Shown here piece after piece: positions 2,930-21,438 of a stretch of 30,093 nucleotides of DNA (positions within the stretch are counted from its first letter, which is position 1; every line of letters starts with the position of its first letter). The translations under genes were made by a program, and so were the position numbers. This DNA comes from a virus (Duplodnaviria; Heunggongvirae; Uroviricota; Caudoviricetes): positions 1-30,093 of IMG/VR virus record IMGVR_UViG_2802429218_000005. One strand, written 5' to 3'. The notes beneath the pieces were generated by a model. The model was not told where the DNA came from, ran no database searches, and saw only the letters and a list, made by a program, of their open reading frames with translations.

Positions 2930-3796
2930 CTAAGCGAGGTTCTTGTTTTCAAATTGTTCCGGACTGAGGCCGCCACACCAACTGTGCCGCCGCCACCGAT
3001 TGTAATCACATTCGATATAATTAAACACCGTTGCCCGCATTATTTCCCGGCTGATAAAGTGTTCTCCATGGATACATTCCACTTTCAGCGAATGAAAGAA
3101 GCTTTCCACGCAGGCATTATCGTAGCAGCAACCTTTTGCGCTCATACTTCCACGCAGATTATGCCGCTTCAGTTGCGCCTGATAATCTGCTGAACAGTAC
3201 TGGCCTCTACGGTCCGTGTGAACGATAACGTTCCGGGGCCTCTTACGCCGCCACAGCGCCATCTGCAGGGCATCGCAGGCCAGTTGCGCCGTCATGCGTG
3301 GCGACATTGACCAGCCAATAACGGCACGTGACCACAGGTCAATGACCACTGCCAGATACAGCCAGCCTTCATCTGTACGTAAGTACGTGATGTCTCCTGC
3401 CCACTTCTGGTTCGGGCCACTGGCGTAAAAATCCTGCTCCAACAGATTTTCTGACACAGGCAGGCCGTGTGCGCGGTAGCTGACCGGGCTGAACTTCCGG
3501 GAGGCCTTTGCCCTCAGTCCCTGACGGCGCAGGCTTGCCGCCACGGTTTTTACGTTAAAGGGGTAACCCTGAGCACGCAGTTCATCCGTCAGGCGTGGGG
3601 CACCGTAACGCTGTTTTGACCGGGTAAAAGCCGCGAGGACAACGCTGTCGCAGTGTTGGCGGAACTGCTGACGCGTGCTTATCCTTGTCCGCCGCTGACA
3701 CCACGTATACCAGCCGCTGCGGGCCACCCGGAGCACGCGGCACATTGCTTTGATGCTGAACTCAGCCTGATGTTTTTCAATAAAGACATACTTCAT
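2930..3796 (-). CDS. insF: IS3 transposase OrfB (DDE catalytic component; normally expressed as OrfAB by -1 frameshift)
   Basis: Translation [32 protein letters not shown]... with integrase-core motifs ([18 protein letters not shown]); frame is -1 relative to orfA. Confidence 0.9.
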
Positions 3797-4101
3797 TTCA
3801 GGCGCTTCGCGAAGTATGTCGCGGCCTTTTGGAGGATAGCCAGCTCTTCATCCCGTTCTGCCAGCTGGCGTTTGAGACGTGCAATCTCGGTAGACATCTC
3901 CAGTTCACGTTCAGAAGACGTCTGCTGATTTTGCTGTTTACTGCGCCAGTTGTAGAGCTGTGATTCATACAGGCTGAGTTCACGGGCTGCGGCAGTAACA
4001 CCGATGCGTTCAGCAAGCTTCAGGGCTTCACTGCGAAATTCAGGCGAATGCTGTTTACGGGGTTTTTTACTGGTTGATACTGTTTTTGTCATGTGAGTCA
4101 C
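3793..4101 (-). CDS. insE: IS3 transposase OrfA (HTH component)
   Basis: Translation [35 protein letters not shown]... matches IS3 OrfA as I recall it; ATGA overlap with orfB. Confidence 0.9.
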
Positions 4102-4495: not shown

Positions 4496-5899
4496 TCAAG
4501 ATTTTTTACTGCCAGTAAAACTATCACCCTCAAACTCATCCTGTTCGTGGTTACTCTGACGATCGGCTGTGTGTTTACGTATTTGATTCGCTATTTCCCC
4601 ACCAACAGTCTGTTGTGTTCGGATAGAATTAGCACTTCCCTTCATCATCTGATACTCCGATGCTCCATTAGACAGCCCGCTCGCCATGTGAGAAGCCATG
4701 CGGCCAGCTCGTGAGAATGATGAAGCAAACCCCTGGCTTCCTCCGCTGACGCTACCTGTATTGCTCCCTGCAGAAGAACCACCGGAACCGCCTGATGGTT
4801 GTCCTCCAGAAGTATCTACGGAACCGGTATCTTCCCCGCCGCCAAATCCTCCACCTAAACCACCTTTATCACCAGAACCAGATTCTTCGGCCATCGCCGC
4901 TTGTGCAGATTCAAATGCTGCTTTTAGAGCGGAAGCACCACCACTGACTTGAGCTGTAGCGCTCATTGCCATTGCCCCAGCGCCACTGATTGCAGTAGTA
5001 GCAGCGCCAGTAATCATACCTGCTCCAAAACCACCGATCCCTTGTAAGGACGCTCCTCCAACAACGCCTGATAACAACAACGGTAATTTATTCGTCAATA
5101 CTAAAAGAATAATTGACGCCAGAAGTAAAACAATAAGACTATTAAGATCAGGAATATCATTTTTAATAATAGAAAAATACTGATCTAAAAATGATTGCCC
5201 AATCCCAATGATTAATGTCATTGTAAATAATTGAATACCAATCGATAATACTGTGCGTAAGTAATTTATTGCTATATCAGAAGTCCATTTCGAGCCACCA
5301 AACCCAAGAAAAATAACTCCTGCATAACACAACACCCATGCAGAAACTAACATTATTAGCATATTTATCGCGATAAGCGCCATTACTACTAATACTATTA
5401 TCGCGACGGTTATCATTATGGTCGAAATCATTGGAGACCAAATTGATGCCGCTGAACTGACCTTTGTTAATATCACAAAAGCTATATCAACTATGCTGGA
5501 GGGTGAAATACCAGTACTTGTTCCTAAAGCATTTGCTGCAAGTTGTCTCATTGAGTTAATTATAGATTGTGCTATGGCTGGGCCGTTGATTAAAAGATAA
5601 TAAAAAAAACCTATCACGGCAAAAAAACGAACTATTTCTGCAAGTGCATTGATTAAACCTTCCCCTTGCATCGCCAACATACCAAATGTCCAAACCATAC
5701 TGATTAATACCAGCCCCCAGAAGAGCCAATTCGCATAATCACCAATTACTAATGACCATGTGCTGGCTACTTGCTGAAACTTATCTAATAACGTATCAAG
5801 TAAACCGCTACTATCTAATTGACCAGCATAAGCATTTACAGAAAACAAAAAAATCATTCCCCAAAAAGTGAGTTTGCTTACTATTCTCATAATTACCAT
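4496..5899 (-). CDS. trbL: Conjugal transfer protein TrbL/VirB6-like (polytopic membrane protein with Gly/Ser-rich C-terminal tail)
   Basis: Multiple hydrophobic TM segments followed by a GGxGG/SGGS-rich low-complexity tail, typical of TrbL; sits in trbJ-K-L order. Confidence 0.75.
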   Translation of the reverse strand: MVIMRIVSKLTFWGMIFLFSVNAYAGQLDSSGLLDTLLDKFQQVASTWSLVIGDYANWLFWGLVLISMVWTFGMLAMQGEGLINALAEIVRFFAVIGFFYYLLINGPAIAQSIINSMRQLAANALGTSTGISPSSIVDIAFVILTKVSSAASIWSPMISTIMITVAIIVLVVMALIAINMLIMLVSAWVLCYAGVIFLGFGGSKWTSDIAINYLRTVLSIGIQLFTMTLIIGIGQSFLDQYFSIIKNDIPDLNSLIVLLLASIILLVLTNKLPLLLSGVVGGASLQGIGGFGAGMITGAATTAISGAGAMAMSATAQVSGGASALKAAFESAQAAMAEESGSGDKGGLGGGFGGGEDTGSVDTSGGQPSGGSGGSSAGSNTGSVSGGSQGFASSFSRAGRMASHMASGLSNGASEYQMMKGSANSIRTQQTVGGEIANQIRKHTADRQSNHEQDEFEGDSFTGSKKS

Positions 5900-6066
5900 T
5901 CTCGCTTAGGGCTAGGATTGTTATTACTGCGCAGGGCACATTTATCGTAGCTATGTTCGTTCAATTTATTCTCTGGCGTCGATAAACAATCGTCATCTTT
6001 TTTATCACAAGAGCATAGAATCAATGGAATGATTAGAATAAAAATGACCAAAAGTTTATCTTTCAT
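5893..6066 (-). CDS. Small lipoprotein-like ORF (57 aa), TrbK-like entry-exclusion candidate; not in supplied ORF track
   Basis: Hand translation MKDKLLVIFILIIPLILCSCDKKDDDCLSTPENKLNEHSYDKCALRSNNNPSPKREW; signal-peptide-like N-terminus with Cys; stop overlaps trbL start (GAATGGTAA); positioned between trbJ and trbL as trbK is in P-type systems. Confidence 0.4.
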   Translation of the reverse strand: MKDKLLVIFILIIPLILCSCDKKDDDCLSTPENKLNEHSYDKCALRSNNNPSPKREW

Positions 6067-6077
6067 TCAGCTATCCC

Positions 6078-6872
6078 TCACCAAATTCGCTTCGGGCTTG
6101 GTGTGTTCTCGCCAGCTAACGCTTTTTCATCAGCAACTATTTGTTGGGCCTCTTTATCGGTCTGAGCCAGCGCCAGTGTTGCTGCAGCGTTTTGTTGAGC
6201 TATCAGAAGCGAGCGGATTTGCAGCAGCTGGTTTGTTTGAGCACTGGCAAGCTGGTTAGCGGCCTGAATAGCTTCCATTTGCCCTTGCGCGCCGGTTGCC
6301 TGAGTTTGCAAATCTGTCAGGTTATCAGCATCGCTTTGCAGTGTTTCCTGCTGTTGATCGAGAGCCTTAAACACGGCGTCGTTCGCCTTTTTACGTGCCT
6401 CAGAGTTGTTCTGTTCAGCTTTACGCAGTGCGCTGATTTCATCCGCAGTACATTCAACATTACTGTTAAAGCACGGCGATGAGCGGTAGTAATTCACGTC
6501 CTGATAACGTTTCAGATATGAATCCAGACTACCGGCCTGATTTTTGTAGTAATTAAGGGTGTCCTGCGCCTGCAACAATTTGTTGATGGTCGAATTGGCC
6601 TGATCCCAGATATAGGCTGCAGGCGCGACTGTATTTTTGAGCATGTTTTCATACTGCTGCAGCTGCGTCTGGTACTGCTGGATCTGTTTAGCCACAGCCT
6701 GAACGTTATTGACTGCGCTGATTGTGGTCTGCACCACATTAGTACCATCGATGACAGGGATACCGGCTGTCGCCGGTAATGCCATGATGGATGCCAGGAA
6801 GGAAGCTGCTAAAGATTTTTTAGCTGCTAAAATCCCTCTCAGTGATGAAAATACTAGGAGCATTAACTTCAT
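6078..6872 (-). CDS. trbJ: Conjugal transfer protein TrbJ (VirB5-like)
   Basis: Signal-peptide-like N-terminus then AGIPVIDGTNVVQTTISAV and Q-rich coiled-coil region typical of TrbJ; adjacent to trbL. Confidence 0.75.
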   Translation of the reverse strand: MKLMLLVFSSLRGILAAKKSLAASFLASIMALPATAGIPVIDGTNVVQTTISAVNNVQAVAKQIQQYQTQLQQYENMLKNTVAPAAYIWDQANSTINKLLQAQDTLNYYKNQAGSLDSYLKRYQDVNYYRSSPCFNSNVECTADEISALRKAEQNNSEARKKANDAVFKALDQQQETLQSDADNLTDLQTQATGAQGQMEAIQAANQLASAQTNQLLQIRSLLIAQQNAAATLALAQTDKEAQQIVADEKALAGENTPSPKRIW

Positions 6873-6953: not shown

Positions 6954-7319
6954 TTATTTATCCAAGATTCTATCCATAATATTTCTTAGTTCTTGTCTGG
7001 TTGATTCTATTTTAGCAAGCAACGTTTTTATTAATGAGGGTGAAAAATCAACTGTGCGTGGATCGTTAGCTAACCACAGTTTAAGTAACCCACCAAGTCG
7101 ACCAAGATCAGCATTTACTCGGCTAAGCTCTACAACCTGATCAATATCTACAATAGACTCAACCTGATAACCCATTGCTACTTTACGAATGAAACTCGCT
7201 ACACTTAAGCCAGATGCTTCTGCATTTTCCTGGATTTGCGCTTTTTCATCTGGCAAACAATAAACTTTAATTGGTGTACTATTTTTTCTAGTCTGAGAAA
7301 CGGTCATATCATTCTCCAT
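6954..7319 (-). CDS. MobC-family relaxosome accessory (mobilisation) protein, ribbon-helix-helix type
   Basis: Motifs AEASGLSVASFIRKVAMG and RLGGLLKLWL resemble MobC family; size about 120 aa; upstream of trb genes. Confidence 0.55.
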   Translation of the reverse strand: MENDMTVSQTRKNSTPIKVYCLPDEKAQIQENAEASGLSVASFIRKVAMGYQVESIVDIDQVVELSRVNADLGRLGGLLKLWLANDPRTVDFSPSLIKTLLAKIESTRQELRNIMDRILDK

Positions 7320-7387
7320 ACAGGCGGTAGCCGATCAGCCTCGCAGAGCAGGACTCCATTGAGCAGCCCAGCTGCGAATAAGGGAAG

Positions 7388-7425
7388 GTAAAGTAGAAGC
7401 GCCGTTTACGGTGGGCCTACTTTAC
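7388..7425. repeat. 9-bp inverted repeat gtaaagtag / ctactttac with 20-nt spacer, about 70 bp upstream of MobC-like gene
   Basis: Read directly from sequence; arms are perfect reverse complements. Confidence 0.5.
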
Positions 7426-7590
7426 ATGTCCTGCCCCACTGTTGCCGTTGTATATCTGTGTACCCATTGTGTATTTCGGTGTAAGCAGTGTGTTTTTTTG
7501 ATGTATTTCTGCAGGTTTATTCATATATTAAGTGTGTAATATATGTGTTTTCTGAAAGGAAACTGATTTAAATACCAAAATTTAAGATAA

Positions 7591-7872
7591 TTATTCTTTC
7601 GGTTTTATCTTCGGTGGCCTACCTCGTTTCTTTTGAACCATTTCAGCACGCTGCATTAAATCGCGGTTTTCCAGCTCTGATTCAACAGAATTATCTATCC
7701 ACTCTTTAACATCTTCTCGACGCCACAAAAGTCGCTTATTGCCAGGAAGACGGCATCTGGGAGGGAGGCATTTAGGGTTCCGAGTTGCATCACTACGGAT
7801 ACTTTTCACTGTTTTCTTCAAAGCAAAAGCTAACTCTTCGACGGTTATAAGTTCAGGCATAACTGGTTTCAT
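7591..7872 (-). CDS. AlpA/excisionase-family HTH DNA-binding protein
   Basis: LITVEELAFALKKTVKSIR ... RLPGNKRLLWRREDVKEWI resembles HTH_17/AlpA/Xis-type regulators of integrative elements; basic C-terminal tail. Confidence 0.55.
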   Translation of the reverse strand: MKPVMPELITVEELAFALKKTVKSIRSDATRNPKCLPPRCRLPGNKRLLWRREDVKEWIDNSVESELENRDLMQRAEMVQKKRGRPPKIKPKE

Positions 7873-8180
7873 AGCAGAACCTATCTCTCAGAAAATATTT
7901 TCAGGATTTTAGCCGCTATAATTTTAGCCGCTAAATTTTGCAAACCAACGTTAAGAATTGAGAATACCCAAAAATTATCACCTGAAATATTTCTGTCAAC
8001 ACCTCAACAGCTAGAGGAAATAAAAAACCACTGGACCAGCTCTATTTTTTGTTCGTTTTTTGCACAACAATAAGGTTTTAATAAGTCTTTTAGTATTTTG
8101 GTTATATATATGGTTAAAGATCTGGTTAGAGAACAATAAAACAATAGCTAATCCGTTGTTTTGTAATTAATTTAAAAAAA

Positions 8181-8246
8181 TGCCCTACCTCATATGTCAA
8201 TAATTTGCCCCTCATATGTCATGAAATGGCCCCTCATATGTCATAA
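8181..8246. repeat. Three tandem iteron-like direct repeats, 22-bp period, core cctcatatgtca (8188, 8210, 8232)
   Basis: Direct reading: tgccctacctcatatgtcaata / atttgcccctcatatgtcatga / aatggcccctcatatgtcataa. Confidence 0.7.
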
Positions 8247-8331
8247 ACATAAAAAAACAAGCACAGGTTATAAACATAGTTACTAATAGAATTTGTGGAT
8301 AAATGCACAGGATATACGCAAAAAATATAAA

Positions 8332-8347
8332 TTGTTTAGCTAAACAA
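8332..8347. promoter_or_regulatory. Perfect 16-bp palindrome TTGTTTAGCTAAACAA (copy 1), candidate operator
   Basis: Exact self-complementary sequence; identical second copy at 8505..8520. Confidence 0.6.
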
Positions 8348-8403
8348 AATAGCAACAATAAAAATGAAACAAAATGTAAATAATGGATTTTGGCTATAGT
8401 TAC

Positions 8404-8429
8404 CCACAAAGGTTAGCTAACCTTTGTGG
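8404..8429. promoter_or_regulatory. Perfect 26-bp palindrome CCACAAAGGTTAGCTAACCTTTGTGG sharing core TTAGCTAA with the 16-bp palindromes
   Basis: Exact self-complementary sequence; followed by a 16-bp palindrome tctcataattatgaga at 8432..8447. Confidence 0.6.
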
Positions 8430-8504
8430 TATCTCATAATTATGAGAGCACCATCATTAACAACGGATATATCGAAACGAGTAACAGAAAATGCTCCTCG
8501 ATGG

Positions 8505-8520
8505 CTTGTTTAGCTAAACA
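8505..8520. promoter_or_regulatory. Perfect 16-bp palindrome TTGTTTAGCTAAACAA (copy 2), candidate operator
   Basis: Identical to copy at 8332..8347. Confidence 0.6.
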
Positions 8521-8813
8521 AATTTAAATTTTACTAAGTATGTATGAAGGGCAAAACCTGATCCCAAACAGGAAGGAATGGTCAATGGATAGGTGTTTTT
8601 GCTGCATAGCAACGCTACTCGCAATATAACCAGAAAAATAGGGATACTAAACCCGACAGGTGAGGCCGGGCTTGAGTATTTGTAGCTCTGGGCGGAGGGG
8701 ACATCCCACATTAGACGAAAAAATTCTATAATGAATTGTTGAGGTAAAGCAATTAGGTATTATCTAAAACAAGTTATCGCTGATGTAAAAGTTGTTATCT
8801 AACAAGTAGAAAG

Positions 8814-9080
8814 GTGAGAATTGTGAGGACAAAAAAGGCTGAACCAAGCACTGTAGGTGAAATACTTAATGAAGAATTCTTGAAACCCATGAATATGTCT
8901 TTATGTAAATTAGCGGAATTGACAGGAATGTCTTATAGTAGAATAAGAAAAATTATAATACATAATGATCCAATATCCATAAAAGAAGCATTATTACTTG
9001 CTGAAGTATTTCACACGGATCCGGATTTTTGGATAAACTTACAAAATGTTCATCATTACTGGCATCAAAAATGTAACTGA
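8814..9080 (+). CDS. XRE-family HTH protein, HigA-like antitoxin/antidote (solitary); alternative GTG start at 8823
   Basis: STVGEILNEEFLKPMNMSLCKLAELTGMSYSRIRKII...EALLLAEVFHTDPDFWINLQNVHHYW matches HigA/VapI-type antidote pattern; SD aaggtgag upstream of GTG 8823. Confidence 0.7.
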   Translation: MRIVRTKKAEPSTVGEILNEEFLKPMNMSLCKLAELTGMSYSRIRKIIIHNDPISIKEALLLAEVFHTDPDFWINLQNVHHYWHQKCN

Positions 9081-9134
9081 TATCAAAATCTGCCGTTAAT
9101 AATGTGTATTATCAACGGCATGTATTTAACAAGA

Positions 9135-10880
9135 TTAATTATACTCAATGCGGAATAATTTATTCTCTTGAGACAATTTCACAATGAAGTTTTTCTCATC
9201 GCTCAGTTCTTTTGGAAGTTTATCCTTCAATATAGATGCAACATACTGAATTTGAGATTTGTAACGTTCAACAAGATTAGCTATTCTGACCAGTTGATTG
9301 CCATGCATAAGTTCTTTTTTGTCATTTAACAAAAAATGGAAACAAGGAATGTTTTCTTCATCTGCAAATAAAATATATGCAATATCAAAACAAACAATTT
9401 CTCCTTGTTTTTTTCCTGAACTAAAATTGGTATTAAACGAACTGAATTTGTATATTTTTTTTCCTGTTTTTGATGCTGTAACAATATCATATTTCAAAGC
9501 ATATTGTTCACCGTATAACTCTTGAGACACAGTTGAAAAATATTTATTGAACTTATTTACTTGAGATTGAACTTCTAACTCAAAATCATCAGAAAATAAA
9601 TTATTGTTAATAGCATCAACTTGAGCGTTTAACTCTTCGATATTCTTTTCAGTTTTCTCAATTTGGTTAATAATGGCTTCGAACTCACCTTTTTTTCGGT
9701 GTTTTTCATTCAATTCTAAGACTAGTCCTTCAAGTTCATCAAACGAACCGCTTTTATTTATATTTTCAACTAATTCTTTTTCTTTGGCAAGAAGTATAGT
9801 TAAATCTTCTTGAGTTTTACTAATCTCACTAGTTATTACAGGTAATTCTTTTGATATGAATTTAACTTTTTCTTCAACCATTTGGTTGTGGAAGGAAAGT
9901 AATGATTCAAATTTTACCTGAATATTCTTTATATTATTACTGGCTTCAGTATATAGATCTTTCAATTGATTAGTGTCAATTTCCATCTTGCCACTTTCAA
10001 TATCTTTTACCGCCTCAACTATGAGTTCTTTCCGTAATTTAAGCTTACTTAATTTTGAACCTATAGTGCTCAATTGATACTTAATATCATCCAAAGCATT
10101 GAGATCATTTTCAAAGTTAGGGTTGATATAGAAAGTAGACTTTTTCAGATCTAAATCATTAATTTCCGAAATCAATAATGCTAGTGATGTCTCATATGCA
10201 GTGCGAGTTTGTTTAGACTCCAACCTATTCTTGAAGGTTGTTTCCATTCGGATGCTAGCTAACAAATTTTGTTTAAGAGCTCCTTTTCCAAAATCACATC
10301 CAAGAAGAAATAAATGAAGGGTCTCATATTCATCATCACGAGTAAATGAGCTTAGTGTTCTCAGCGTATGGGTGACACTGAGTTCTTTATATCTTATATT
10401 ATTAGATATTATTTGGGAAAAGGTAGGCTTATTACCATAATGGCCAGAAACTAATACGTCTGTTAACGTTTCTTCAAACTCTTCGATTGTTTTTTGTAGT
10501 CCATTAATTCTTCTGATACATTTTTTACGAGAGAGAAAATTTCGCTCAATGACGATGGTCTTAGCTAGCGGATCATCTAAATCCTCAACAAGTGTTAGGG
10601 TTATTAAAACCTCTGTTTCAATCAAGAAGTTTTTAACAAGTGTATATTCGCCCTTTTTAGTTTCTGGGTCAGTATAAATGCCTTTAGCATCTGCGCCTAA
10701 ACAAAAATCGACTAACATTAATACTGTTGTTTTACCAACATTATTGCCAGTGGTTTTGGTTGACTCGGTTGATGCTTCATCAACTGGCGTTTCATCAACG
10801 ATCAAATTCAAACCAGCATGAAACTTTATTAAGCGTATAACCCCATCTTTATTGGCTATCTGGAGAGATTTTATGAACAT
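9135..10880 (-). CDS. SMC/Rad50-like ABC ATPase with central coiled coil (LmuB-like / ABC-3C ATPase candidate)
   Basis: N-terminal FHAGLNLIVDE then Walker A GNNVGKTT (res 45-52); long E/K/L-rich central region; C-terminal Walker B-like ILFADEE; AT-rich; last gene of coupled 3-gene operon. Confidence 0.7.
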   Translation of the reverse strand: MFIKSLQIANKDGVIRLIKFHAGLNLIVDETPVDEASTESTKTTGNNVGKTTVLMLVDFCLGADAKGIYTDPETKKGEYTLVKNFLIETEVLITLTLVEDLDDPLAKTIVIERNFLSRKKCIRRINGLQKTIEEFEETLTDVLVSGHYGNKPTFSQIISNNIRYKELSVTHTLRTLSSFTRDDEYETLHLFLLGCDFGKGALKQNLLASIRMETTFKNRLESKQTRTAYETSLALLISEINDLDLKKSTFYINPNFENDLNALDDIKYQLSTIGSKLSKLKLRKELIVEAVKDIESGKMEIDTNQLKDLYTEASNNIKNIQVKFESLLSFHNQMVEEKVKFISKELPVITSEISKTQEDLTILLAKEKELVENINKSGSFDELEGLVLELNEKHRKKGEFEAIINQIEKTEKNIEELNAQVDAINNNLFSDDFELEVQSQVNKFNKYFSTVSQELYGEQYALKYDIVTASKTGKKIYKFSSFNTNFSSGKKQGEIVCFDIAYILFADEENIPCFHFLLNDKKELMHGNQLVRIANLVERYKSQIQYVASILKDKLPKELSDEKNFIVKLSQENKLFRIEYN

Positions 10881-11100
10881 ATTCCAATTTCCCCTTTGGA
10901 TTTAATTCAACTATTCCTGCTAGGTATAACCAGTCAAGAGATAAAACAAAAATTGATATAGACATTTCAATTTTTTTCTTTGTTTCGTAAAAAAGATCTA
11001 TCAATTCAATTTCATCGAAACGTTTCAGCGTATCTATAATAAACCCACCGTTATAATATAAGCTATCTTTAGGATGAATGTCCTTTGGTAACAACATCAT
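10849..11100 (-). CDS. Small overlapping ORF (83 aa), candidate middle component of three-gene system
   Basis: Overlaps upstream gene end and downstream gene start by 32 nt each (translational coupling); no motif recognised. Confidence 0.4.
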   Translation of the reverse strand: MMLLPKDIHPKDSLYYNGGFIIDTLKRFDEIELIDLFYETKKKIEMSISIFVLSLDWLYLAGIVELNPKGKLEYVHKISPDSQ

Positions 11101-12049
11101 TCACTCCGTTAGGGTCCCTAAAAATTTTACAGCGTATGAACGCGTCCACTGCAAGTATACTAACACAAAGCTCCAGTTCCTCTAATGGTATTTGTGTAAA
11201 ATTTGCACTTTTTCTGACCATTTCAACAGAGCTGTCAATTATTTTAAAAAATAGCTCATCTCCAGTGTATTGTGTACTCAATTTTACGAAGATAGTTCTA
11301 AAGGAAGACAAAACTGAAAGGCTTGAGTTTTTACCCATCTGGTTGAACTCTGAATAAATGCGGGATACTTTTCCATGATGGATTTTGTAATCTTCAATAA
11401 TATATTCAGCTGCATTCAAATTATTAAATGTAATCTTGTCAGTTACATCGAATGGTTGCGGGAAGTCAGTAGTTTCAACATTAGAAAAATCCTCCTTAGC
11501 TAATATATTTATAACAGCAGCAATATTTGTTTCGATTAAAACATTATCAGATTCCTCTTGTAACTCATTTTTTAGAAAACCGTGTATTTCTTTCTGTTTT
11601 GTTATGTCAAGATGTGAAATAACATTAAGTATCGATTTTACATCATGAATATCTTGCTGCGGTATAAAAACCAAAGCATGAGGATTAGTGTAAGTTTTAT
11701 TTCTTAAATCACTAGCATCTTTTGCAATTGATATAAATTTAAACTGATGGCCTTTATATAATCTTAAGTCTTTGTTCAAGGCTGAATCAATTTTTGTTTT
11801 AGTTGCAGTTGATGAAACCTGTAATACTATCTTCCCATTCTCATCGATAAGATCGATACCCTCAAAATTATGCTTCTCTTGATTAGTATTCTTTAGGGAA
11901 TACCCAAATAATAAATTAAAGAAGTGAACATAAAAATCTTCACAATGAAGATTATAGTTAAGAATATTTAACTTCCCTCTTAATTCAACGCTATAGCATA
12001 GCAACGTAAGCCTTTTCTCACATAAATCAAAATAAATAGATCTGTTCAC
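11069..12049 (-). CDS. Hypothetical 326-aa protein, candidate effector (LmuA-position) of three-gene defence-like operon
   Basis: First gene of the operon; AT-rich; no confidently recognisable catalytic motif by eye. Confidence 0.6.
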   Translation of the reverse strand: MNRSIYFDLCEKRLTLLCYSVELRGKLNILNYNLHCEDFYVHFFNLLFGYSLKNTNQEKHNFEGIDLIDENGKIVLQVSSTATKTKIDSALNKDLRLYKGHQFKFISIAKDASDLRNKTYTNPHALVFIPQQDIHDVKSILNVISHLDITKQKEIHGFLKNELQEESDNVLIETNIAAVINILAKEDFSNVETTDFPQPFDVTDKITFNNLNAAEYIIEDYKIHHGKVSRIYSEFNQMGKNSSLSVLSSFRTIFVKLSTQYTGDELFFKIIDSSVEMVRKSANFTQIPLEELELCVSILAVDAFIRCKIFRDPNGVNDVVTKGHSS

Positions 12050-12302
12050 ACATATTATCCTTAAACTATAAACTAATCCGATATTATGAACTTAGGTAAA
12101 GTAGAAAAACTCTTCACAGATCTTACAGCATCTACGAGCTGGTTCAAGGTATGTTGAGATGGATTGAGATGTGTAGCGTATCTTCTCATTCCAAAAAGAA
12201 ACCTGCCACAATTTTGCCACACTCACAACGCGCAAAAATGCACATTTGTGTTAAGAAAAGCAAAACAACGCAACAGTAACCAGATGATTTTATTAGAAAA
12301 AA

Positions 12303-12348
12303 TGGTGCCGATAATAGGAGTCGAACCTACGACCTTCGCATTACGAAT
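12303..12348 (-). tRNA. tRNA-Thr(CGU) 3' fragment, 46 nt from anticodon loop to CCA (thrW-like att-core remnant, not a complete gene)
   Basis: Reverse complement reads ATTCGTAATGCGAAGGTCGTAGGTTCGACTCCTATTATCGGCACCA; sequence 5' of the anticodon loop does not continue as tRNA. Confidence 0.7.
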
Positions 12349-12837: not shown

Positions 12838-13590
12838 TCAGATTCCCTGGTGAGTAAGAATTTTACTTTCTGAACTCCTCTGAGAGTATTGACTTGGAGA
12901 AACACCAAAATAACGTCTAAATACATAAGTAAAGTATGAGACACTGACATAACCACAGACCTTAGCTACTTTACTAATAGGATAACAACGAGTGCTGAGT
13001 AAATATTCAGCCATTTGCATCCTCTCATCAAGTATGATCTTACTGAATGATACCCCCTCTTCTTTCAATTTCCTCTTTAGTAAACTTTCGCTGAGATATA
13101 ATCTTGATGATATATCCTTAAGACGCCATGGTGCAGATAAATCCGTATGAATAATCGTTTTAACTTTAGCCCCTGTGCTTTTCAAACATCCAAACAGAAA
13201 TACTCCAAATTGTTTTTCAGAAGAAAATGCAGAGAGACATGTAAAAGCAATAGACTCATCAAAAGTTTCTATGTATTCAGCACAGTGATTAGCCCAACTA
13301 ATTAATCCTTTAATTAAACTGAAGTCAGCAAAGTTTATTTTTAAATAAGATGGATATTCCCTACAATCAGAAATATCCCTTAAGTTATTAGCTTTCAAAT
13401 AGCGACTAATAAACTCAGCGCCAAAATCCGCCACTATCACTCTTTCAGGATATGTCAGGAAAAAATCTCTATAGCTAGAGTCGACAAGTACAGATAAACC
13501 TCTATCCAGAAACACACTCTCTTTTCCGAAATAAACATCAAAGGACTCCAAAATCAATATAACTGAACATGTAGTTGCCATATCATCCAC
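12838..13590 (-). CDS. AraC-family transcriptional regulator (AppY/EnvY-like subfamily)
   Basis: C-terminal HTH region WRLKDISSRLYLSESLLKRKLKEEGVSFSKIILDERMQMAEYLL...CGYVSVSYFTYVFRRYFGVSPSQY resembles AppY/EnvY as recalled; AT-rich. Confidence 0.8.
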   Translation of the reverse strand: MDDMATTCSVILILESFDVYFGKESVFLDRGLSVLVDSSYRDFFLTYPERVIVADFGAEFISRYLKANNLRDISDCREYPSYLKINFADFSLIKGLISWANHCAEYIETFDESIAFTCLSAFSSEKQFGVFLFGCLKSTGAKVKTIIHTDLSAPWRLKDISSRLYLSESLLKRKLKEEGVSFSKIILDERMQMAEYLLSTRCYPISKVAKVCGYVSVSYFTYVFRRYFGVSPSQYSQRSSESKILTHQGI

Positions 13591-14309: not shown

Positions 14310-15179
<870 letters not shown>

Positions 15180-15239: not shown

Positions 15240-15794
15240 TCATTTATCTCCGACCGGAAACTTCTTATACAGTGTCGATATACCAACATCATAGATGATC
15301 GCCACCTTCTGGCGAGGAACGCCTGATGCAATTAATCGTCCGGCCTGCTCCCATTGTTCTGGTGTAAGTTTGGGGCGACGTCCACCAATTCGTCCCTGTG
15401 CGCGAGCTGCTTCTAGTCCAGCTTTTGTTCGTTCAACAATCAGTTCACGCTCCATTTCAGCCAGGGCACCCATCACATGAAAGAAAAAGCGCCCCATTGG
15501 GGTACTGGTATCAATTGAATCCGTCAGACTACGAAAGTTGATGCCTCGTTCGCGCAACTCCTCCACCAGCACGACAAGATGCCGCATACTGCGCCCCAGT
15601 CGGTCCAGTTTCCAGACCACCAGCGTGTCACCTGCCGATAATGTCCTGAGCAGCTTTTTCAGTCCTGGTCTGTCGGACTTTGTACCGCTTATCTTGTCTT
15701 CAAAAATTAGCTCACACCCTGCACAGTTCAGCGCATTGCGTTGTAGATCGGTATTCTGGTCATTTGTTGATACACGTACATAGCCAATAAGCAT
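15240..15794 (-). CDS. pin: Serine recombinase DNA invertase, Pin/Gin/Hin/Cin family
   Basis: MLIGYVRVSTNDQNTDLQRNAL...VVWKLDRLGRSMRHL...GRIGGRRPKLT nearly identical to my recollection of e14 Pin; SD AGGGGGA 5 nt upstream of ATG at 15794; track N-terminal extension is spurious. Confidence 0.9.
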   Translation of the reverse strand: MLIGYVRVSTNDQNTDLQRNALNCAGCELIFEDKISGTKSDRPGLKKLLRTLSAGDTLVVWKLDRLGRSMRHLVVLVEELRERGINFRSLTDSIDTSTPMGRFFFHVMGALAEMERELIVERTKAGLEAARAQGRIGGRRPKLTPEQWEQAGRLIASGVPRQKVAIIYDVGISTLYKKFPVGDK

Positions 15795-15847
15795 GTTAAA
15801 TCCCCCTGGTAAAAGCAGGAATGATGCCATTTGCTTGTTATTTCTTC

Positions 15848-16204
15848 ATTTTCATAAACGTTGGTTTGGGAGAAGCCAGATATGTCATTCAGCGAGGAGC
15901 TAATGCCAATGGTGCGTGGATACGCTGGTCAGATGGTGCAATAGAAGTCTTTGGAACGGGGGGTTCTAATGATAATGGACTGGCTAAAGTCGTTTATCCA
16001 ATTGCGCTACCTAAGCTTTCACGTTTTATCAGCATAGCGGAAAGAATAGGAACGGATTATGGGGGCACATCTAATAACGTTCACGTTTCAATGATCGTGG
16101 ATGACCAGGTCACTAATACCGGTTTTTATGTCCGCTGCCAGATGTACGACGGAACACCATCAACAAGTGCTTTTTCCTGGAGGGTTTATTGTGCGCCTGT
16201 TTAA
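15848..16204 (+). CDS. Alternate tail-fibre C-terminal variable segment (promoterless in present orientation)
   Basis: Frame runs through crossover site encoding NVGLGE, matching NLGLGE encoded at the other site within the expressed fibre gene. Confidence 0.5.
   Translation: MFINVGLGEARYVIQRGANANGAWIRWSDGAIEVFGTGGSNDNGLAKVVYPIALPKLSRFISIAERIGTDYGGTSNNVHVSMIVDDQVTNTGFYVRCQMYDGTPSTSAFSWRVYCAPV
15849..15874. repeat. Invertase crossover site (gix/pix-like), copy proximal to pin
   Basis: ttttcataaacgttggtttgggagaa; reverse complement TTCTCCCAAACCAACG... shares 14 bp with site at 17460 and resembles gix/hix consensus. Confidence 0.7.
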
Positions 16205-16388
16205 TCCTGTTACTTTGACTGAAGTAATCCCCGGTCTTCATGACGTGACCGGGGCTGTTGAATTACCAGAAGATAACTGGTTTTTTACTGCATCTGAAAT
16301 CCCTGAAGGAATGGAAATATCTGTTAACGAGAAGGGAGAACCCATTCTGATTGAGATTAAACCGTCTCAGGAGGAACTGGCCAGATGA
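16190..16388 (+). CDS. Short alternate tail-fibre assembly (Tfa-like) ORF, 66 aa, GTG start overlapping upstream stop
   Basis: VRLFNPVTLTEVIPGLHDVTGAVELPEDNWFF resembles Tfa N-termini; much shorter than typical Tfa. Confidence 0.4.
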
Positions 16389-16962
16389 CATCTGGCGCGG
16401 TGCTGGTATCTGTTGCCATCACCGCGTCAGTGTAATCCAGCACGGCGTTAAGTCGGGTGTTTTCTGCCTGCGTCAGCTTCCGCCCGGCCTGCAATTTCAG
16501 TTGAATCAGACTAATGGAAACCATTGCAGCATCAATCAGCGACTGCCGCTGTGTTTCTGCCATGTCTACTGCTGCTCTATGCTGTGCCTCGGTATCCGTC
16601 ACCCATTTCTCACCATCCCATTTATCGTATGGCGTTAACGGGGCGATAGTGGTTGTCTTTTCAGGGTAATCACCCGGAGCTGTGATTTCTTTTGATTCTC
16701 CTGTTTCGGTGCTATAGACGATTTCACCGCGATGGTCTGGCACATATTCCCATGAGTTAAAATCTGCAGAACGGCAAATTGCATAACCAGCTTTATATGA
16801 GCCAGGAGCATCTAAACAGGAACATGCCGGGATACCGACACCCACAGCAAGATATTCGGTTGATGTGGAAATATATTCTCGTGTTTCACCATCATAATTA
16901 TAAACGGTAATATCTCCCGCCTTTGTGGCGATGAGTTCCTTATTTAATATAGCTTTATCCAT
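16357..16962 (-). CDS. Tail fibre assembly protein (Tfa)
   Basis: Typical Tfa architecture with C-terminal ...RLNAVLDYTDAVMATDTSTAPDVIWPVPP; immediately downstream of fibre gene. Confidence 0.85.
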   Translation of the reverse strand: MDKAILNKELIATKAGDITVYNYDGETREYISTSTEYLAVGVGIPACSCLDAPGSYKAGYAICRSADFNSWEYVPDHRGEIVYSTETGESKEITAPGDYPEKTTTIAPLTPYDKWDGEKWVTDTEAQHRAAVDMAETQRQSLIDAAMVSISLIQLKLQAGRKLTQAENTRLNAVLDYTDAVMATDTSTAPDVIWPVPPETV

Positions 16963-17762
16963 CAGGCAGCCCTCACGATATAATTAAAGGCAATGTTACG
17001 GGGTCGATTTTCGTTTGCAGTTGGAACAATTCTTGAAGCATCAAGGCCAATCACTTTTGGGTAAACACTGCCCTCGGACCTTTCTGTCACCATACTTCTG
17101 ACTAAGGAGAAATAACTATTGTTCGTTGAGGGGTTCAAAGGCACCACTGCCCCCTTAAACGAGCCTACTGATTCCCATATTGAATAATTTTCGGTGTTTA
17201 CAGTCTTGAACTCACCATAGATATTACGTATGGCATCGCCCTGAGCGGATAATATTGTTCTCCCCGCATCCGCACTACGCCCATCATCCCAGCCACGAAT
17301 AAATTCACCGCGTAAATCAGGCAATTTATTTGTCGGGTAAGCCTTTGCCAGTTCCGGGTATTCTTCAGCAGAAAAAGCCGCACCATTGCATTTCAGCCAG
17401 CCTGTCGGCGGAGTGGCGGAAGGCCACGGAACAGGCACACCGACAGGTAATGCAGAGCCTTCTCCCAAACCAAGGTTTTCGAGAGCCGTTTTCACCGTGC
17501 CATCCGATTTGATATCGCCAAACGGATTCTTGCGGCTTAACAGCAGCGCACGAAGCGCGGTAAGCAGCTGGTCGTGCCGCGCCTTCTCCAGACTGGCACC
17601 GGATGCCTCCACCACGCTGCAGAGTTCTTCCTGCAACATATCAAAGTAGTCATCATCCAGATCGGTGGCAGGCGTGCCAGTCTGGGGGTTACCACGGGTA
17701 AAACCGTTCTTACCCGCGCCGAACTTATCCTTCTGCGCGGTTTTCGTGTCTATACGATGCAT
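16962..17762 (-). CDS. Tail fibre protein (constant N-terminal part about 100 aa outside invertible segment, variable C-terminal part inside)
   Basis: Collar-like region [23 protein letters not shown]...[16 protein letters not shown]; crossover site lies within codons for ALENLGLGE. Confidence 0.85.
17460..17485. repeat. Invertase crossover site (gix/pix-like), copy inside tail-fibre gene
   Basis: ttctcccaaaccaaggttttcgagag, inverted relative to the 15849 site. Confidence 0.7.
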
Positions 17763-17765
17763 GGA

Positions 17766-18350
17766 TTACTCCGGATATTTAAAAATTACGTAGGTATGCG
17801 AAGGGGAGAGTTTGTTAAGCACACATTCGACGACGGTGTCGCCCCAGATACGCAGCGCGGTATCACAGGGATCGCCACATGTCATCCAGGTGGTGTTGGT
17901 GGCGGCTGGCATGTTGACCTGCCAGTAATACCGCCATTCCGGCGCATTCACCGCGTCAGTACAGGCAGATGAGCAGGTGAACGTGCTTTTGTCGTATCGC
18001 GTGATGGTAGCGTCTGGTCTGCCCAGGGCAGCAAGCTGTGCAAGGTAAAAATCCTCATTGATGCCGCCCGCCAGGTTAACCTTCGCATCCAGTCGTTGCT
18101 GACGCTGGCGAAGGGTCTGTGTCCCTGCGGGAATACATTCATCCGGCAGACCGCACAGACGCTCCCAGCGGTTTATCAGTTCAGTGGTGGTGCGCGGATC
18201 CAGCTCCCGCATCAGGGCATCCGCACGCTGATGAACGCGGGTTAATGACGGTGCCGCACCGGCAATCGCCGGATCTCTGGCTGACCACGCCGGACCGGGT
18301 GGCAACAGTGCCGACAACAGACGGATGTAATCATCGTTTGTCACGTCCAT
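17766..18350 (-). CDS. Baseplate/tail protein, Mu gp48-like (YmfQ/DUF2313-like)
   Basis: Position between baseplate J-like and tail fibre; N-terminus [22 protein letters not shown] as in e14 YmfQ-type proteins as recalled. Confidence 0.75.
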
Positions 18351-19399
18351 GAAATCGTCCCCAGTACCGCCAGTTCATTTTTTGCAATGGAGATATTGTC
18401 CGCCGGTGCAAGCAACTGATGGCTGTATTCCCCGTTCGCACCGGAAATCGCTTCACTGATACGTGACACCTTCAGTTCTCCCTGCGGATAACCATCACGC
18501 AGCAGGAACGAACGCAACTCCGCGGTAATGGCAGCCCGTATTTCTGGTGTGTCCGGCGTCACGCGGATATGAAAATCCACCGTATGTGCCACCGGCCTGA
18601 ATACATACAAATCAGAGCCTGCCACCGGGGCCAGTGGCCCGATATGTTGTCTTGCTGCCGTTTCCGTTGATTCTTCCGGAATGGGATTAATCAGGTCACT
18701 GCTGGCAATCATCACACCGACAGTTCCCGTTCCCATCCAGTGGCGGTATGTCCATGCACGGGTAATGCCTGGCACTTCTTTAGCCCAGACGACATAGTCC
18801 CCGTCAGCCCCGCCCTGAGGCGTCCAGTAATACCGCTCAATGACGCGGGCGCGCCACGTTTCCAGCTCTTCAGTATCAAATCCGCCTGTCAGGGTGTCAG
18901 CCACACCGGAAGACGGCAGACCATTCACCGGCGTGACCAGGATTAATGCCGTACCGTCGTCAGCGTTACCGACCGCGCCTGTAGTTGAGCAAGTGATCGG
19001 CACACGCAGGACACCACCGGAGCTGGTTGCATCGGCAGTTGCCGTGTACTGAACCAGGTCATCGCGCTGAATCACGCTCCCGGCAGTCACCTTCAGGCCA
19101 TCGCTGACACCTTCCCAGCGCATATACCCGCTGGCAGCCGTGGCCCCCTTGCGCGGACACCGTTTCATCGCAGCATGTCGCGCCAGCCAGGACTCATCGC
19201 ACAGGTCAGGCAGCATATTCATTGCCAGATAATCGATGTACCCGTAAACCGTATGCAGCGCCGCCGCATACACCTTTGCCCGCACGTCTTCATCCATGCG
19301 CCGGAGCGTGTCGCTGACGTCCAGCCTGGCGAATAAATCGTTACGGAGCATACTGATATTTTCTGCCAGCGTCGGGCGCTGAAATTCACTGTCCGCCAT
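18341..19399 (-). CDS. Baseplate J-like protein (Mu gp47-like)
   Basis: Size and position in conserved Mu-like baseplate gene order; overlapping start/stop with neighbours. Confidence 0.8.
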
Positions 19400-19814
19400 G
19401 CGTTATCGCACTCCACAGATCATCAAAAGAAATCATTACCGGTCCGTCACGACGCCAGAGAGTGATACTGTTACCCAGTTCATTAATCCCGGTGCGGCGG
19501 ATATCCAGATCAATACGGGACACCACGCCGTCATCAATCATCCATTGCAGGCATTCGCGGATATATCCCCTTACCGTCTGCACCAGTTGATTGGTCAGTT
19601 TGCTGCGCTGAAGCAGCCACAGTCGGGAGCCGTAACGGTCATTCTGTACCGCAGGCCAGGTATCCCCCCACCATCCCATCGGGACGTCGGCGTTGTCATC
19701 AGGCTCCGCCCGCCGCCAGGTAAACAGGGAAATCACCACGGCGCGGGTCAGCGGATCCAGCGGTGCGCTGGCGCAGGTGCGTTTACCGTTCACCGTCAGC
19801 CACAGTTCCATCAT
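19386..19814 (-). CDS. Baseplate protein, Mu gp46-like
   Basis: Size and position between gp45-like and J-like genes; overlapping coupling. Confidence 0.75.
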   Translation of the reverse strand: MMELWLTVNGKRTCASAPLDPLTRAVVISLFTWRRAEPDDNADVPMGWWGDTWPAVQNDRYGSRLWLLQRSKLTNQLVQTVRGYIRECLQWMIDDGVVSRIDLDIRRTGINELGNSITLWRRDGPVMISFDDLWSAITHGGQ

Positions 19815-20359
19815 GCCTCCATCGCTTTATCCGGTTTGTCGGTGTTACTGCCCTGACCGTTCTCTCTGTGACGATGCCCGTTATAGGCAAGCCGCATCGC
19901 TGACATGGTGGTACCGCCGGAGTCGCACAGGTCTTTCACCTGTCCGGTCACTTCCAGGTCCATTTCAAAACGTGCTCTGGGCGCATTGCGAAACGTGATC
20001 GTTTTACCTGCACCGTCCACCACGATCCCCTCCCGGGTCAGCGTCACGGACTGCCCCTGATCGTCATAGACAGCCACCTCACCCGTCTGCAGCCCTTTCA
20101 GGCGGTAGCGCCGGTCCGACACCGTAACAACCACCGCATGAGAACGGTCACCATCCGGAAACAACACCACCGCTTCCGCACCGCTGTTTGCCCTTGCGGT
20201 AAAACCGTAGGGTTCAAGATGTTCAACCCCGGCTTTGGGTTCACCGGCAATCAGGGACACATCCACGGTCTGACATTTCGTGGCGGCACTGATGCTTTTC
20301 ACCACCGCCCGCCCAATCAGGCCGAGGAGTTGTCGCTGTATGGTTTCAATCGCCTTCAT
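19811..20359 (-). CDS. Baseplate assembly/spike protein, Mu gp45 (gpV-like)
   Basis: Size, position and overall pattern of gpV-like proteins. Confidence 0.75.
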   Translation of the reverse strand: MKAIETIQRQLLGLIGRAVVKSISAATKCQTVDVSLIAGEPKAGVEHLEPYGFTARANSGAEAVVLFPDGDRSHAVVVTVSDRRYRLKGLQTGEVAVYDDQGQSVTLTREGIVVDGAGKTITFRNAPRARFEMDLEVTGQVKDLCDSGGTTMSAMRLAYNGHRHRENGQGSNTDKPDKAMEA

Positions 20360-21438
20360 CAGAACGGGTCCTCCTGTACTCTGGCTTTTTTCTTTTTCCG
20401 CGCGCCGGGGGCTTCGGGTTCAGGCAGATAAGCATCAGGTGGGCCGACACGGATTTCCGTCAGGGTGCCATTCTGGTCCTGAGTAAACGTGACTTCCGAG
20501 ACAAGCAGTTCGGTATTGTCGAAACCACAGACCGGATCGAAGACAATCACCCGCTGGTTGGGCTGCCACAGCGTACCGTTACCCTGTCGCCAGCCCTGCA
20601 CCACATAGGTGGTTTCATCCGTCCGCGCCGCCCGTTGTCGGGCTTCAAAGTCAGCACGCGCAATACAGCCTGCCCCCGTAGCCTGCCCTGTCTGCCTGAT
20701 ATACATCGGACGGTAACGGGCAATAAATGCATCCTCTGTGCGGGCCCGCAGCGCGGTGGTGGTGGCCTCACCGAAATCATCGTCGTTTCCGGCACGCTGC
20801 CCCGCCACCTGGTAAACTGAAAACCGCTCCCGGATACTCTTCTCCGTATCACAGGAAAGGATGTTTTCCCCAAGTACCAGCGCGGTATGTGCCCGCGTTG
20901 AGCCAATACCACCAATCACCAGCCTGCCGTGCGGGTCGTCATAAGCCAGCGCCTGCTGCTGACCGAGTATTTTGTTGATCACCTCGATCACCGTTTCACC
21001 GTGATCAGGCTGGACATCCGGAATAACACCCGACGGCGCACCGTTGTTCACCACCTCAATGCCGAAGGGCGCAGCAAGCGCCTGCGCAATCTGTACCAGC
21101 GATCGTCCGTTAAACTGTGTCGGTTCGGCTGCACAGTCAATCAGATCAGCGGTTAGACTGCGTCCGGCAATACCGGTGCTGACCGAACGGGCATCGTAAC
21201 GAACGGGCGTCGCCTCCACCCAGCCGGTGATCACCAGCTCATCACCAATCAGCACTTCCACTTTTGAACCGTTTTTAATGCGCGGCTGAAGCGTGGTGAT
21301 ACCCTCATCTCCCGGCCACTGGCGGGTGATCTCCACACTGAAATCCCGCGCCAGTCGTTCAACACCGGCACCGATGCGCACCGATGTCCAGCCATTCCAC
21401 TCCCGGCCATTTACCCGTAGCGTGACGTTATCGTTCAT
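20359..21438 (-). CDS. Tail/baseplate hub protein, Mu gpP / late control D-like
   Basis: Size and position downstream of DNA-circulation gene in Mu-like order. Confidence 0.75.
   Translation of the reverse strand: MNDNVTLRVNGREWNGWTSVRIGAGVERLARDFSVEITRQWPGDEGITTLQPRIKNGSKVEVLIGDELVITGWVEATPVRYDARSVSTGIAGRSLTADLIDCAAEPTQFNGRSLVQIAQALAAPFGIEVVNNGAPSGVIPDVQPDHGETVIEVINKILGQQQALAYDDPHGRLVIGGIGSTRAHTALVLGENILSCDTEKSIRERFSVYQVAGQRAGNDDDFGEATTTALRARTEDAFIARYRPMYIRQTGQATGAGCIARADFEARQRAARTDETTYVVQGWRQGNGTLWQPNQRVIVFDPVCGFDNTELLVSEVTFTQDQNGTLTEIRVGPPDAYLPEPEAPGARKKKKARVQEDPF

Follow-up and report, generated by a model that had tools for sequence, protein, structure and literature searches.

The three direct repeats at positions 8181-8246 of the IMG/VR virus record IMGVR_UViG_2802429218_000005 (30,093 nucleotides; this whole stretch is termed the window in the following) are, judged by their sequence, iterons of the IncP-1 plasmid type that lie within a reduced IncP-1 origin of replication (oriV). 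The origin is part of an Escherichia coli chromosomal element that has the features of an integrative mobilizable island of approximately 11 kb at tRNA-Thr (thrW). The islands contain cis sites for three plasmid proteins, TrfA, KorB and KorA, none of which they encode. Because the island possesses a TrfA-type origin without an initiator gene, its replication (and regulation) would be borrowed from a visiting IncP plasmid: A helper-dependent origin that is fired in trans by IncP-1 TrfA is regarded as the likeliest function, and on balance as a probable one.

Identification of the repeats as TrfA-type iterons

The sequence-only reading had described a core recurring three times at 22-bp spacing, in an AT-rich non-coding region of roughly 900 bp between AlpA-like and HigA-like genes, and this description was confirmed: The 12-mer CCTCATATGTCA is present in three exact copies in the 30-kb window (8188-8199, 8210-8221 and 8232-8243, all on the plus strand), with a start-to-start spacing of exactly 22 bp in both intervals. 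If one mismatch is allowed, 0.15 matches are expected by chance per 30-kb window, and none of 100 dinucleotide-preserving shuffles reached three; Tandem Repeats Finder independently reported an array at 8188-8244 (period 22, 2.6 copies, score 86). A chance origin of the array was rejected on the basis of both analyses. The surrounding intergenic region comprises 941 bp (7873-8813) with a GC content of 0.33 and is flanked by a gene for a helix-turn-helix (HTH)-like, AlpA-like protein of 93 amino acids (aa) (7591-7872, minus strand) and by a HigA-family/XRE gene (8814-9080, plus strand); the only open reading frames (ORFs) overlapping it are four of 41-65 aa, none of which is annotated in RefSeq or convincing as a gene. 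The units of the array are as follows:

8185-8199, minus strand: iteron 1, CTACCTCATATGTCA on the plus strand and TGACATATGAGGTAG on the minus strand, 'CTACC' variant class
8207-8221, minus strand: iteron 2, GCCCCTCATATGTCA on the plus strand and TGACATATGAGGGGC on the minus strand
8229-8243, minus strand: iteron 3, GCCCCTCATATGTCA on the plus strand, sequence identical to iteron 2

Compared with the TrfA iteron consensus of RK2/RP4, 5'-TGACA(G/C)(A/T)TGAGGGGC-3' (PMC9499019), iterons 2 and 3 match at 14 of 15 positions; their position 6 is occupied by T, like in the iterons of clade II plasmids. Iteron 1 ends with ...GAGGTAG on the minus strand and belongs to a variant class that is known from the IncP-type oriVs of loci L018 and L025; a GGTAG-type iteron is also present in pMNCG080-1 (PMC9499019). 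Iterons 2 and 3 are identical to iterons located next to trfA in the IncP plasmid pMCR3_025943 (L002 5998-6012). When the whole intergenic region was compared with 72,556 plasmids in a sensitive DNA search, the repeat block alone was matched (88% identity). This match was found in 58 conjugative plasmids, with two occurrences in each, and many of these plasmids are typed as IncP. In pMCR3_025943 the match directly adjoins trfA and comprises seven contiguous iterons plus two more, with a GCCCCTCAnnTGTCA unit and a 22-bp period; this period is also that of the plasmids examined, is 22/23 bp at canonical IncP-1 loci and occurs twice in the window. A scan for two iteron units 22 bp apart, covering one genome each of 185,579 species, returned 13 loci only: IncP backbone genes (TrfA, KorA/KorB or TrbA) were contained in the retrieved DNA of six, two were copies of the thrW island in Enterobacter chromosomes, and five were without a tested marker in the retrieved flanks, four of which show RK2-like iteron arrays. 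The earlier interpretation of the repeats as binding sites of a plasmid-type initiator is therefore supported by the consensus match, by the occurrence beside trfA in IncP plasmids and by the collinearity with oriV documented below. The binding partner, left unnamed at that time, would by homology be TrfA of a clade II IncP-1 plasmid, supplied in trans.

Comparison of the reduced origin with plasmid origins

Based on alignment A2, positions 8070-8302 are collinear with the trfA-adjacent oriV of four clade II (E. coli-adapted) IncP-1 plasmids: Islands and plasmids share the order of DNA-unwinding element (DUE) 12-mers, spacer, iterons and DnaA-box region. Besides the iterons, the following components were recognized in the window:

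8070-8135, unstranded: A+T-rich DUE with GGTTAAAGATCT-type 12-mer repeats, homologous to the plasmid DUE
8294-8302, minus strand: perfect DnaA box TTATCCACA, downstream of the iterons

Within the DUE, TGGTTAAAGATCTGGTTAGAG is identical between window and plasmids, and Tandem Repeats Finder detected a period of 12 at 8099-8132. Iteron counts and offsets were determined over nine island copies: Between the last DUE 12-mer and the first iteron core, each of the four plasmids and six of the nine copies have an offset of 60; in the window itself this offset is 57, and the window lineage and one other island have 57-58. All nine copies contain exactly three contiguous iterons, all in phase, in comparison to seven contiguous plus two in the plasmids. 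The position of the DnaA box is kept in six of the nine copies and aligns with the DnaA-box region of the plasmids; a lone perfect box is not significant by itself, as 29 of 100 shuffles have one.

In total, the island shares with the IncP-1 oriV (RK2/RP4; clade II plasmids pMCR3_025943, pCFSA664-2, pEC187_3 and pKPC2_sg2) the sequence, orientation and 22-bp period of the iterons, the homologous 12-mer DUE at near-equal distance and the DnaA boxes, and IncP-1 replicons carry KorA and KorB operators that are identical in sequence to those of the island. In contrast to the plasmids, the island has three instead of 7+2 iterons and lacks the GC-rich block as well as trfA, ssb, korA and korB, the island arrays often mix iteron classes (the plasmid arrays examined are homogeneous), and the origin is located in a chromosomal integrative island and not on a plasmid. 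The G+C-rich block is present beyond the DUE in the plasmids (L002 5740-5850). Another feature of the IncP-1 oriV is an adjacent trfA gene; with two TrfA proteins as tblastn queries, neither the window nor any of six islands gave a match (E<=1e-3). By sequence, the iterons and the layout of the origin belong to the IncP-1 oriV family; what the locus lacks is the GC-rich block, a trfA gene linked to it and a set of at least five iterons.

Conservation of the sites and iteron classes

The 7300-9200 region is present at 99% identity or more in 33 complete genomes, which identified the window as part of an E. coli chromosome, and approximately 120 more E. coli chromosomes contain relatives that are 70-80% identical in the non-coding region. 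The iteron array and its 22-bp period are kept in every diverged relative examined. Expressed as mean column conservation over eight islands, the three iteron cores reach values of 0.96-0.98 and the inter-iteron spacers 0.69-0.77; the DUE (0.92), the DnaA-box region (0.92) and the KorB and KorA operators described below (0.97 and 1.00, respectively) are likewise conserved, and the other non-coding DNA ranges from 0.76 to 0.81. This pattern is that of purifying selection on the sites.

Iteron positions 12-15 (the four bases 5' of the core) include TrfA contacts (PMC9499019) and fall into classes that are also seen in plasmids: The GCCCC class is represented by pMCR3_025943 and pCFSA664-2 (termed class A plasmids), the GTACC class by pEC187_3 (the class B type) and pKPC2_sg2, and the CTACC class by Pantoea-like and Salmonella diarizonae IncP-type oriVs. 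TrfA identity amounts to 87-99.7% within a class and to 76-78% between classes A and B. Among the islands, homogeneous arrays of three GTACC units are found in 730V1 and in PS_131_S11, and the array of the window is mixed (CTACC, GCCCC, GCCCC). Mixed-class three-unit arrays were observed at window positions 8185-8243 and at L004 20308-20369, L005 12314-12369 and L007 9315-9370. Mixed classes may widen the choice of helpers or reflect a gene conversion in progress; the class pattern as such fits a continuing interaction or exchange with helper plasmids and not inert DNA.

Search for replication and regulatory genes

No tblastn match to TrfA (two classes), KorA, KorB, TrbA, Ssb, TraI or TraK was obtained in the window or in six islands; TrbJ, TrbL and TraJ were readily found by the same search. 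The remaining conserved island genes contain no Rep or replication domain according to Pfam and NCBIfam, and no RepA homologue is among the conserved genes. An initiator hidden on the island was sought with TrfA and backbone proteins (tblastn) and by Pfam and NCBIfam analysis of the unannotated genes; none was found, and this candidate was rejected. The variable gene next to the integrase, with a product of 296, 309 or 465 aa, has no recognisable domain and might encode a novel initiator; against this speaks that the gene differs between islands. The sequence-only reading had likewise seen neither an initiator nor an integrase in the window, and both statements hold: The tblastn search with TrfA found none, and the integrase end of the island was lost to an IS1 insertion.

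KorB and KorA operators in the control region

Operator sequences of KorB (OB) and KorA (OA) were taken from PMC2680271. The control region contains the following copies:

7908-7935, unstranded: two KorB operators in tandem, just upstream of the alpA-like gene
7908-7920, unstranded: OB copy TTTAGCCGCTATA, one mismatch
7923-7935, unstranded: OB copy TTTAGCCGCTAAA, perfect
8334-8345, unstranded: KorA operator copy 1, GTTTAGCTAAAC, perfect
8508-8519, unstranded: KorA operator copy 2, GTTTAGCTAAAC, perfect
8404-8429, unstranded: 26-bp perfect palindrome CCACAAAGGTTAGCTAACCTTTGTGG with the core GGTTAGCTAACC, a symmetric OA variant

By chance, 0.11 KorB operators with one mismatch allowed and 0.00 KorA operators are expected; the two OA copies together make a 27-nt inverted repeat. 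The complete clade II IncP-1 plasmid pEC187_3 possesses 12 OB and two OA sites with the same sequence as in the window. The KorB (TTTAGCSGCTAAA) and KorA (GTTTAGCTAAAC) operators of IncP-1 are conserved across the control regions of the islands; through them, an island could detect the presence of an IncP helper or take over the partition system of the latter.

The control region contains three further blocks. The core GGTTAGCTAACC occurs in all islands and is absent from pEC187_3; likewise, the block CAACGGATATATCGAA (8461-8476) is invariant across the islands and its exact motif absent from pEC187_3. Another block within 8404-8447 is the 16-bp palindrome TCTCATAATTATGAGA. Together with CCACAAAGGTTAGCTAACCTTTGTGG, the CAACGGATATATCGAA block and TCTCATAATTATGAGA are candidate operators for the AlpA-like or XRE proteins of the island itself. 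A suspected relation of CAACGGATATATCGAA to CGATATATCG, which we take to be the TrbA operator, was not used, the operator sequence not being confirmed in the literature.

Proposed helper-dependent replication and alternative explanations

The comparisons above show the identity of the sites, their collinearity with oriV and their selective conservation, as well as the lack of trfA, korA and korB in the islands. From these, we infer TrfA binding, origin firing, excision and helper dependence as further steps: The three iterons of the island would be bound by TrfA from a clade II IncP-1 plasmid, either incoming or co-resident; TrfA and DnaA of the host would together open the adjacent DUE, upon which the excised circular island would replicate; KorB and KorA of the plasmid would occupy OB and OA and thereby tie island gene expression, and possibly also island partition, to the helper; the island would finally leave via the conjugation pore of the helper, with its own TraJ/oriT and TrbJ-K-L. 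A more far-reaching proposal can be put forward only tentatively, as it is somewhat doubtful: The thrW defence-island subfamily may have dropped an own replicase and may mimic the cis sites of the helper, i.e. a mini TrfA origin together with KorB (ParB-type) and KorA operators. If this is true, the IncP-1 plasmid would unknowingly supply the initiator, the partition/silencing clamp and the regulatory timing in trans, and the mixed-class arrays could let one island answer the TrfA proteins of several IncP-1 subgroups. In the literature searched, no report was found of replication piracy by site mimicry for integrative mobilizable elements (IMEs), nor of a control region built from helper TrfA, KorB and KorA sites without the respective genes.

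Several points weigh against a functional helper-dependent origin. The island possesses three iterons only, in comparison to 7+2 in the clade II plasmids and the five with which the RK2 origin has been described, and the G+C-rich block next to the DUE is absent from the window and the islands (alignment A2). The gap between DUE and iterons is 3 bp shorter in the window lineage than in the plasmids; exact spacing matters in RK2. Iteron 1 and many other island iterons differ at positions 13-15, which are TrfA contacts (PMC9499019), and mixed classes within one array could weaken the cooperative binding of TrfA. At most one of 5,426 complete E. coli genomes has both the island and an IncP plasmid of this type; with approximately three such genomes expected under independence, this number is not informative. 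The literature searched yielded no experiment on the thrW island subfamily.

The same shortness of the array and the missing GC-rich block would suit a TrfA decoy or sensor that does not fire, as would the position of the array in a promoter/operator region dense with sites for KorA and KorB: The iterons would titrate or 'handcuff' the origin of the helper, with a lower copy number or incompatibility as the result, or signal its arrival, in the sensor form by TrfA occupancy that alters transcription of the divergent alpA-like and XRE genes. Such a role would agree with the sharply reduced amplification of the helper pB10 in the presence of an island in the PIME study (see below), which suggests incompatibility, and with the repA-bearing relative L028 that keeps one TrfA-like iteron besides OB and OA-like sites next to its own origin. 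A decoy, however, needs neither 12-mers nor a DnaA box nor a defined DUE-iteron distance, which are kept at a conservation of 0.92 and with plasmid-like spacing; three single-copy chromosomal iterons would be a weak sink, and replication, on which efficient transfer of related IMEs depends, is served by nothing else in the islands. The decoy or sensor is therefore considered rather unlikely. The truncation of the origin relative to the plasmids, the clearly plasmid-derived traJ, trbJ and trbL (69-88% amino-acid identity) and the decay of the window island (IS1 and IS3 insertions, no integrase) might also be read as signs of an evolutionary relic, in which an oriV fragment and KorA/KorB operators are the functionless leftover of an IncP-1-derived backbone. 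This explanation appears quite improbable in view of iteron cores, OA, OB and DUE that are near-invariant in approximately 25-30% divergent non-coding surroundings while the spacers drift, of the exactly three in-phase iterons in nine of nine island copies, and of class-determining bases that changed in step with the iteron classes of the plasmids, which points to a continuing interaction or exchange with the latter.

Sites for proteins of the island itself, i.e. arm-type sites of the integrase or operators of the AlpA-like or HigA-like protein, are very improbable, although a same-face arrangement of direct repeats is typical of arm-type sites and the array is flanked by the two regulator genes. 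Plasmids with neither this integrase nor the AlpA-like gene contain the same 15-mer in 7+2 copies beside trfA, and the guaA-type relative, with an unrelated integrase and AlpA, still keeps one such repeat. The arm-type recombinase sites that had been offered as an alternative in the sequence-only reading do not agree with the intact islands, where the repeats are located approximately 6 kb from the integrase end and the attachment (att) sites are 50-bp copies of the tRNA-Thr 3' end elsewhere on the island; arm-type sites and AlpA-like or HigA-like operators were rejected on these grounds. Helper-dependent replication in trans by TrfA of an IncP-1 plasmid is thus retained as the favoured explanation.

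Relationship to known mobilizable elements

The closest described elements are the PIMEs (Pseudomonadota integrative mobilizable elements), IMEs with int, alpA, repA, traJ, trbJ, trbL and defence cargo (Perta et al., bioRxiv 10.64898/2026.01.12.698999, January 2026). For two PIME1 elements, excision, replication and transfer were shown experimentally to occur with IncP helpers only, and an active island lowers the amplification of the helper pB10; the survey of that study kept only elements with the complete core set including repA, and its authors state that variants without a core component may exist (bioRxiv 10.64898/2026.01.12.698999). The text of the preprint contains no mention of TrfA, KorA or KorB. 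As PIME comparison, the guaA-integrated element L028 was used, which fits the PIME1 description. Its TraJ (89%), TrbJ (89%), TrbK (74%) and TrbL (86%) show these amino-acid identities to their counterparts in the window, and PIMEs and the thrW island are alike in the IncP-like oriT, the divergent regulators, the large defence cargo and the KorB operators; in L028 there are four perfect KorB operators, at 14742, 15552, 18446 and 19674. In contrast, the integrase of the thrW island is not detectably homologous to that of L028, blastp detects no similarity between the 93-aa AlpA-like protein and the 75-aa HTH protein of L028, and the integration sites differ (tRNA-Thr for the thrW island, guaA for L028). 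PIMEs possess an own replicase (repA/repC) with own iterons; in the thrW island a replicase is missing and the origin is of the TrfA type, with three iterons. In L028, a 21-bp-period array of the GACAGAACATGCGCA type with three copies detected is situated beside repA (15914-15976), and a single TrfA-like unit, CTACCTCATGTGTCA, is found at 15620-15634 together with an OA-like site and a DnaA box. These sites look like the remains of the same helper-type origin, which hints at a descent of both subfamilies from an ancestor with an IncP oriV.

GIsul2 and the 'IncP islands' of Brucella suis and Burkholderia glumae are IMEs with IncP-type trbJ-trbK-trbL, sometimes also traJ/traK/traI, and have been proposed to remodel the mating pore of the helper; they are reported with RepA or RepC and guaA integration, and no helper-type oriV has been reported for them. 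The best functional analogue of the thrW island is Salmonella genomic island 1 (SGI1) with its IncC helpers, although the two are not homologous and their sequences and helper families are unrelated. SGI1 reportedly excises and replicates only with the helper, replaces mating-pore subunits, destabilises the helper and hijacks its ParAB-parS partition through mimicked cis sites; it encodes, however, its own replication initiator and oriV, whereas the initiator of the thrW island would be borrowed. An RK2-type oriV without linked trfA replicates when TrfA is supplied in trans, as exploited in oriV-only copy-control vectors (E. coli EPI300); these vectors are engineered and contain the full RK2 oriV, whereas the island would represent a natural three-iteron origin. 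By gene content and sites, the island can be classed with the relatives of the PIMEs, as one that lacks a replicase, integrates at thrW and carries the origin of the helper.

The characterised IMEs that exploit IncP or IncC plasmids (SGI1, GIsul2, IncP islands and PIMEs) all carry their own initiator. An island that keeps only the origin and operators of its helper would demonstrate that cis sites alone suffice to parasitise replication and perhaps also partition and regulation; if true, this helps explain the mobility of 11-kb elements that consist mostly of anti-phage cargo. The sensing of the IncP helper was left as an open question by the PIME study, and the answer may lie in the KorA, KorB and TrfA sites of the control region. 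For mcr- and bla-carrying IncP plasmids of Enterobacterales, the presence of such islands could mean a changed copy number and stability; searches that depend on a replicase gene will not find these islands.

Gene content of the island and neighbouring regions

The intact relatives show a constant gene order: tyrosine integrase, variable gene, 70-aa gene, trbL, the gene for a 57-aa TrbK-like lipoprotein, trbJ, traJ, traJ-II/oriT region, alpA-like gene, oriV-like intergenic region, HigA-like gene, variable defence cargo and tRNA-Thr. They possess a gene with a Phage_integrase domain and 50-bp att repeats in tRNA-Thr; the element of strain 19KM1776 comprises 11,084 bp between perfect 50-bp direct repeats of the tRNA-Thr(CGT) 3' end. 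A near-identical copy (98-100% amino-acid identity) is present in an Enterobacter quasiroggenkampii chromosome and shows recent movement of the island between genera. The features of the window copy are:

2930-4101, minus strand: IS3-family insertion within the island
4496-5899, minus strand: trbL, part of the mating-pore/entry-exclusion gene group (4496-6872)
5893-6066, minus strand: trbK-like lipoprotein gene, 57 aa, same group
6078-6872, minus strand: trbJ, same group
6954-7319, minus strand: traJ, relaxosome accessory protein (Pfam NikA-like; NCBIfam TraJ NF010451, E=4e-48)
7337-7436, minus strand: Rfam traJ-II motif (90 bits), overlapping the probable oriT
7591-7872, minus strand: alpA-like (HTH-like, excisionase/AlpA-like) gene, 93 aa, conserved in all islands
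8814-9080, plus strand: solitary HigA-family/XRE regulator gene (TIGR02607, E=2e-19), divergent from the alpA-like gene
9135-12049, minus strand: defence cargo, ABC-three-component (ABC-3C) system
12302-12348, unstranded: right-end att remnant, a copy of the tRNA-Thr(CGT) 3' end without an intact tRNA

As IS1, located just left of the window, removed the integrase end of the island, this copy is defective and its origin probably stranded in the chromosome. The cargo differs among relatives, where retron Ec78, Avs2, CBASS, a NACHT protein and a methyltransferase/HEPN module were found. In comparison to the IncP plasmid proteins, the amino-acid identity is 69% for TraJ, 88% for TrbJ and 60% for TrbL (tblastn). 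The 93-aa AlpA-like protein gave a weak HTH_17 match only (E=0.09, Pfam). The HigA-family gene is without a HigB partner, and its product is 50% identical to HigA of the higBA pair that flanks the IncP oriV (L002 4678-5294); the protein is probably a regulator rather than an antitoxin.

Between the traJ-II/oriT region and the traJ leader of IncP plasmids, identity amounts to 88-90%. An inverted repeat at 7381-7432 and a nic-like ATGTCCTGCCC, assigned by comparison with what we take to be the nic consensus, coincide with the traJ-II motif just upstream of traJ, the place at which an IncP-type oriT would be expected; the conserved traJ-II 'RNA structure' may be, at least partly, a DNA-level oriT signal. 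A permissive Rfam search of 7300-8900 gave traJ-II as the only structured RNA and none in the intergenic region. In a consensus scan of 7400-8900, no sigma-70-like promoter passed (5.7 expected from shuffles), which, for an A+T-rich stretch of 1.5 kb that must hold at least two promoters, suggests unusual or activator-dependent promoters. Positions 8520-8813, the approximately 290 bp upstream of the HigA-like gene, are richer in G+C than their surroundings (e.g. 8640-8720) and are, among the aligned islands, common to strain 19KM1776 only; they contain no annotated gene and no Rfam match, and one 65-aa ORF on the minus strand (8514-8711).

The integrase end of the islands carries, according to RefSeq, a 112-nt 'tRNA-Ser' (L004 13995-14106, also in L005, L006 and L008), at which ARAGORN predicts no tRNA; its first 50 bp are the attL copy of the tRNA-Thr(CGT) 3' end, so that the entry looks like an annotation artefact. 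To the right of the island, the window continues as a tandem accumulation of mobile DNA that comprises an AraC-like gene (12838-13590), a GIY-YIG gene (14355-15179), a Pin-type invertase (15240-15830) and, at approximately 16300-30000, a phage tail and baseplate module rich in GC.

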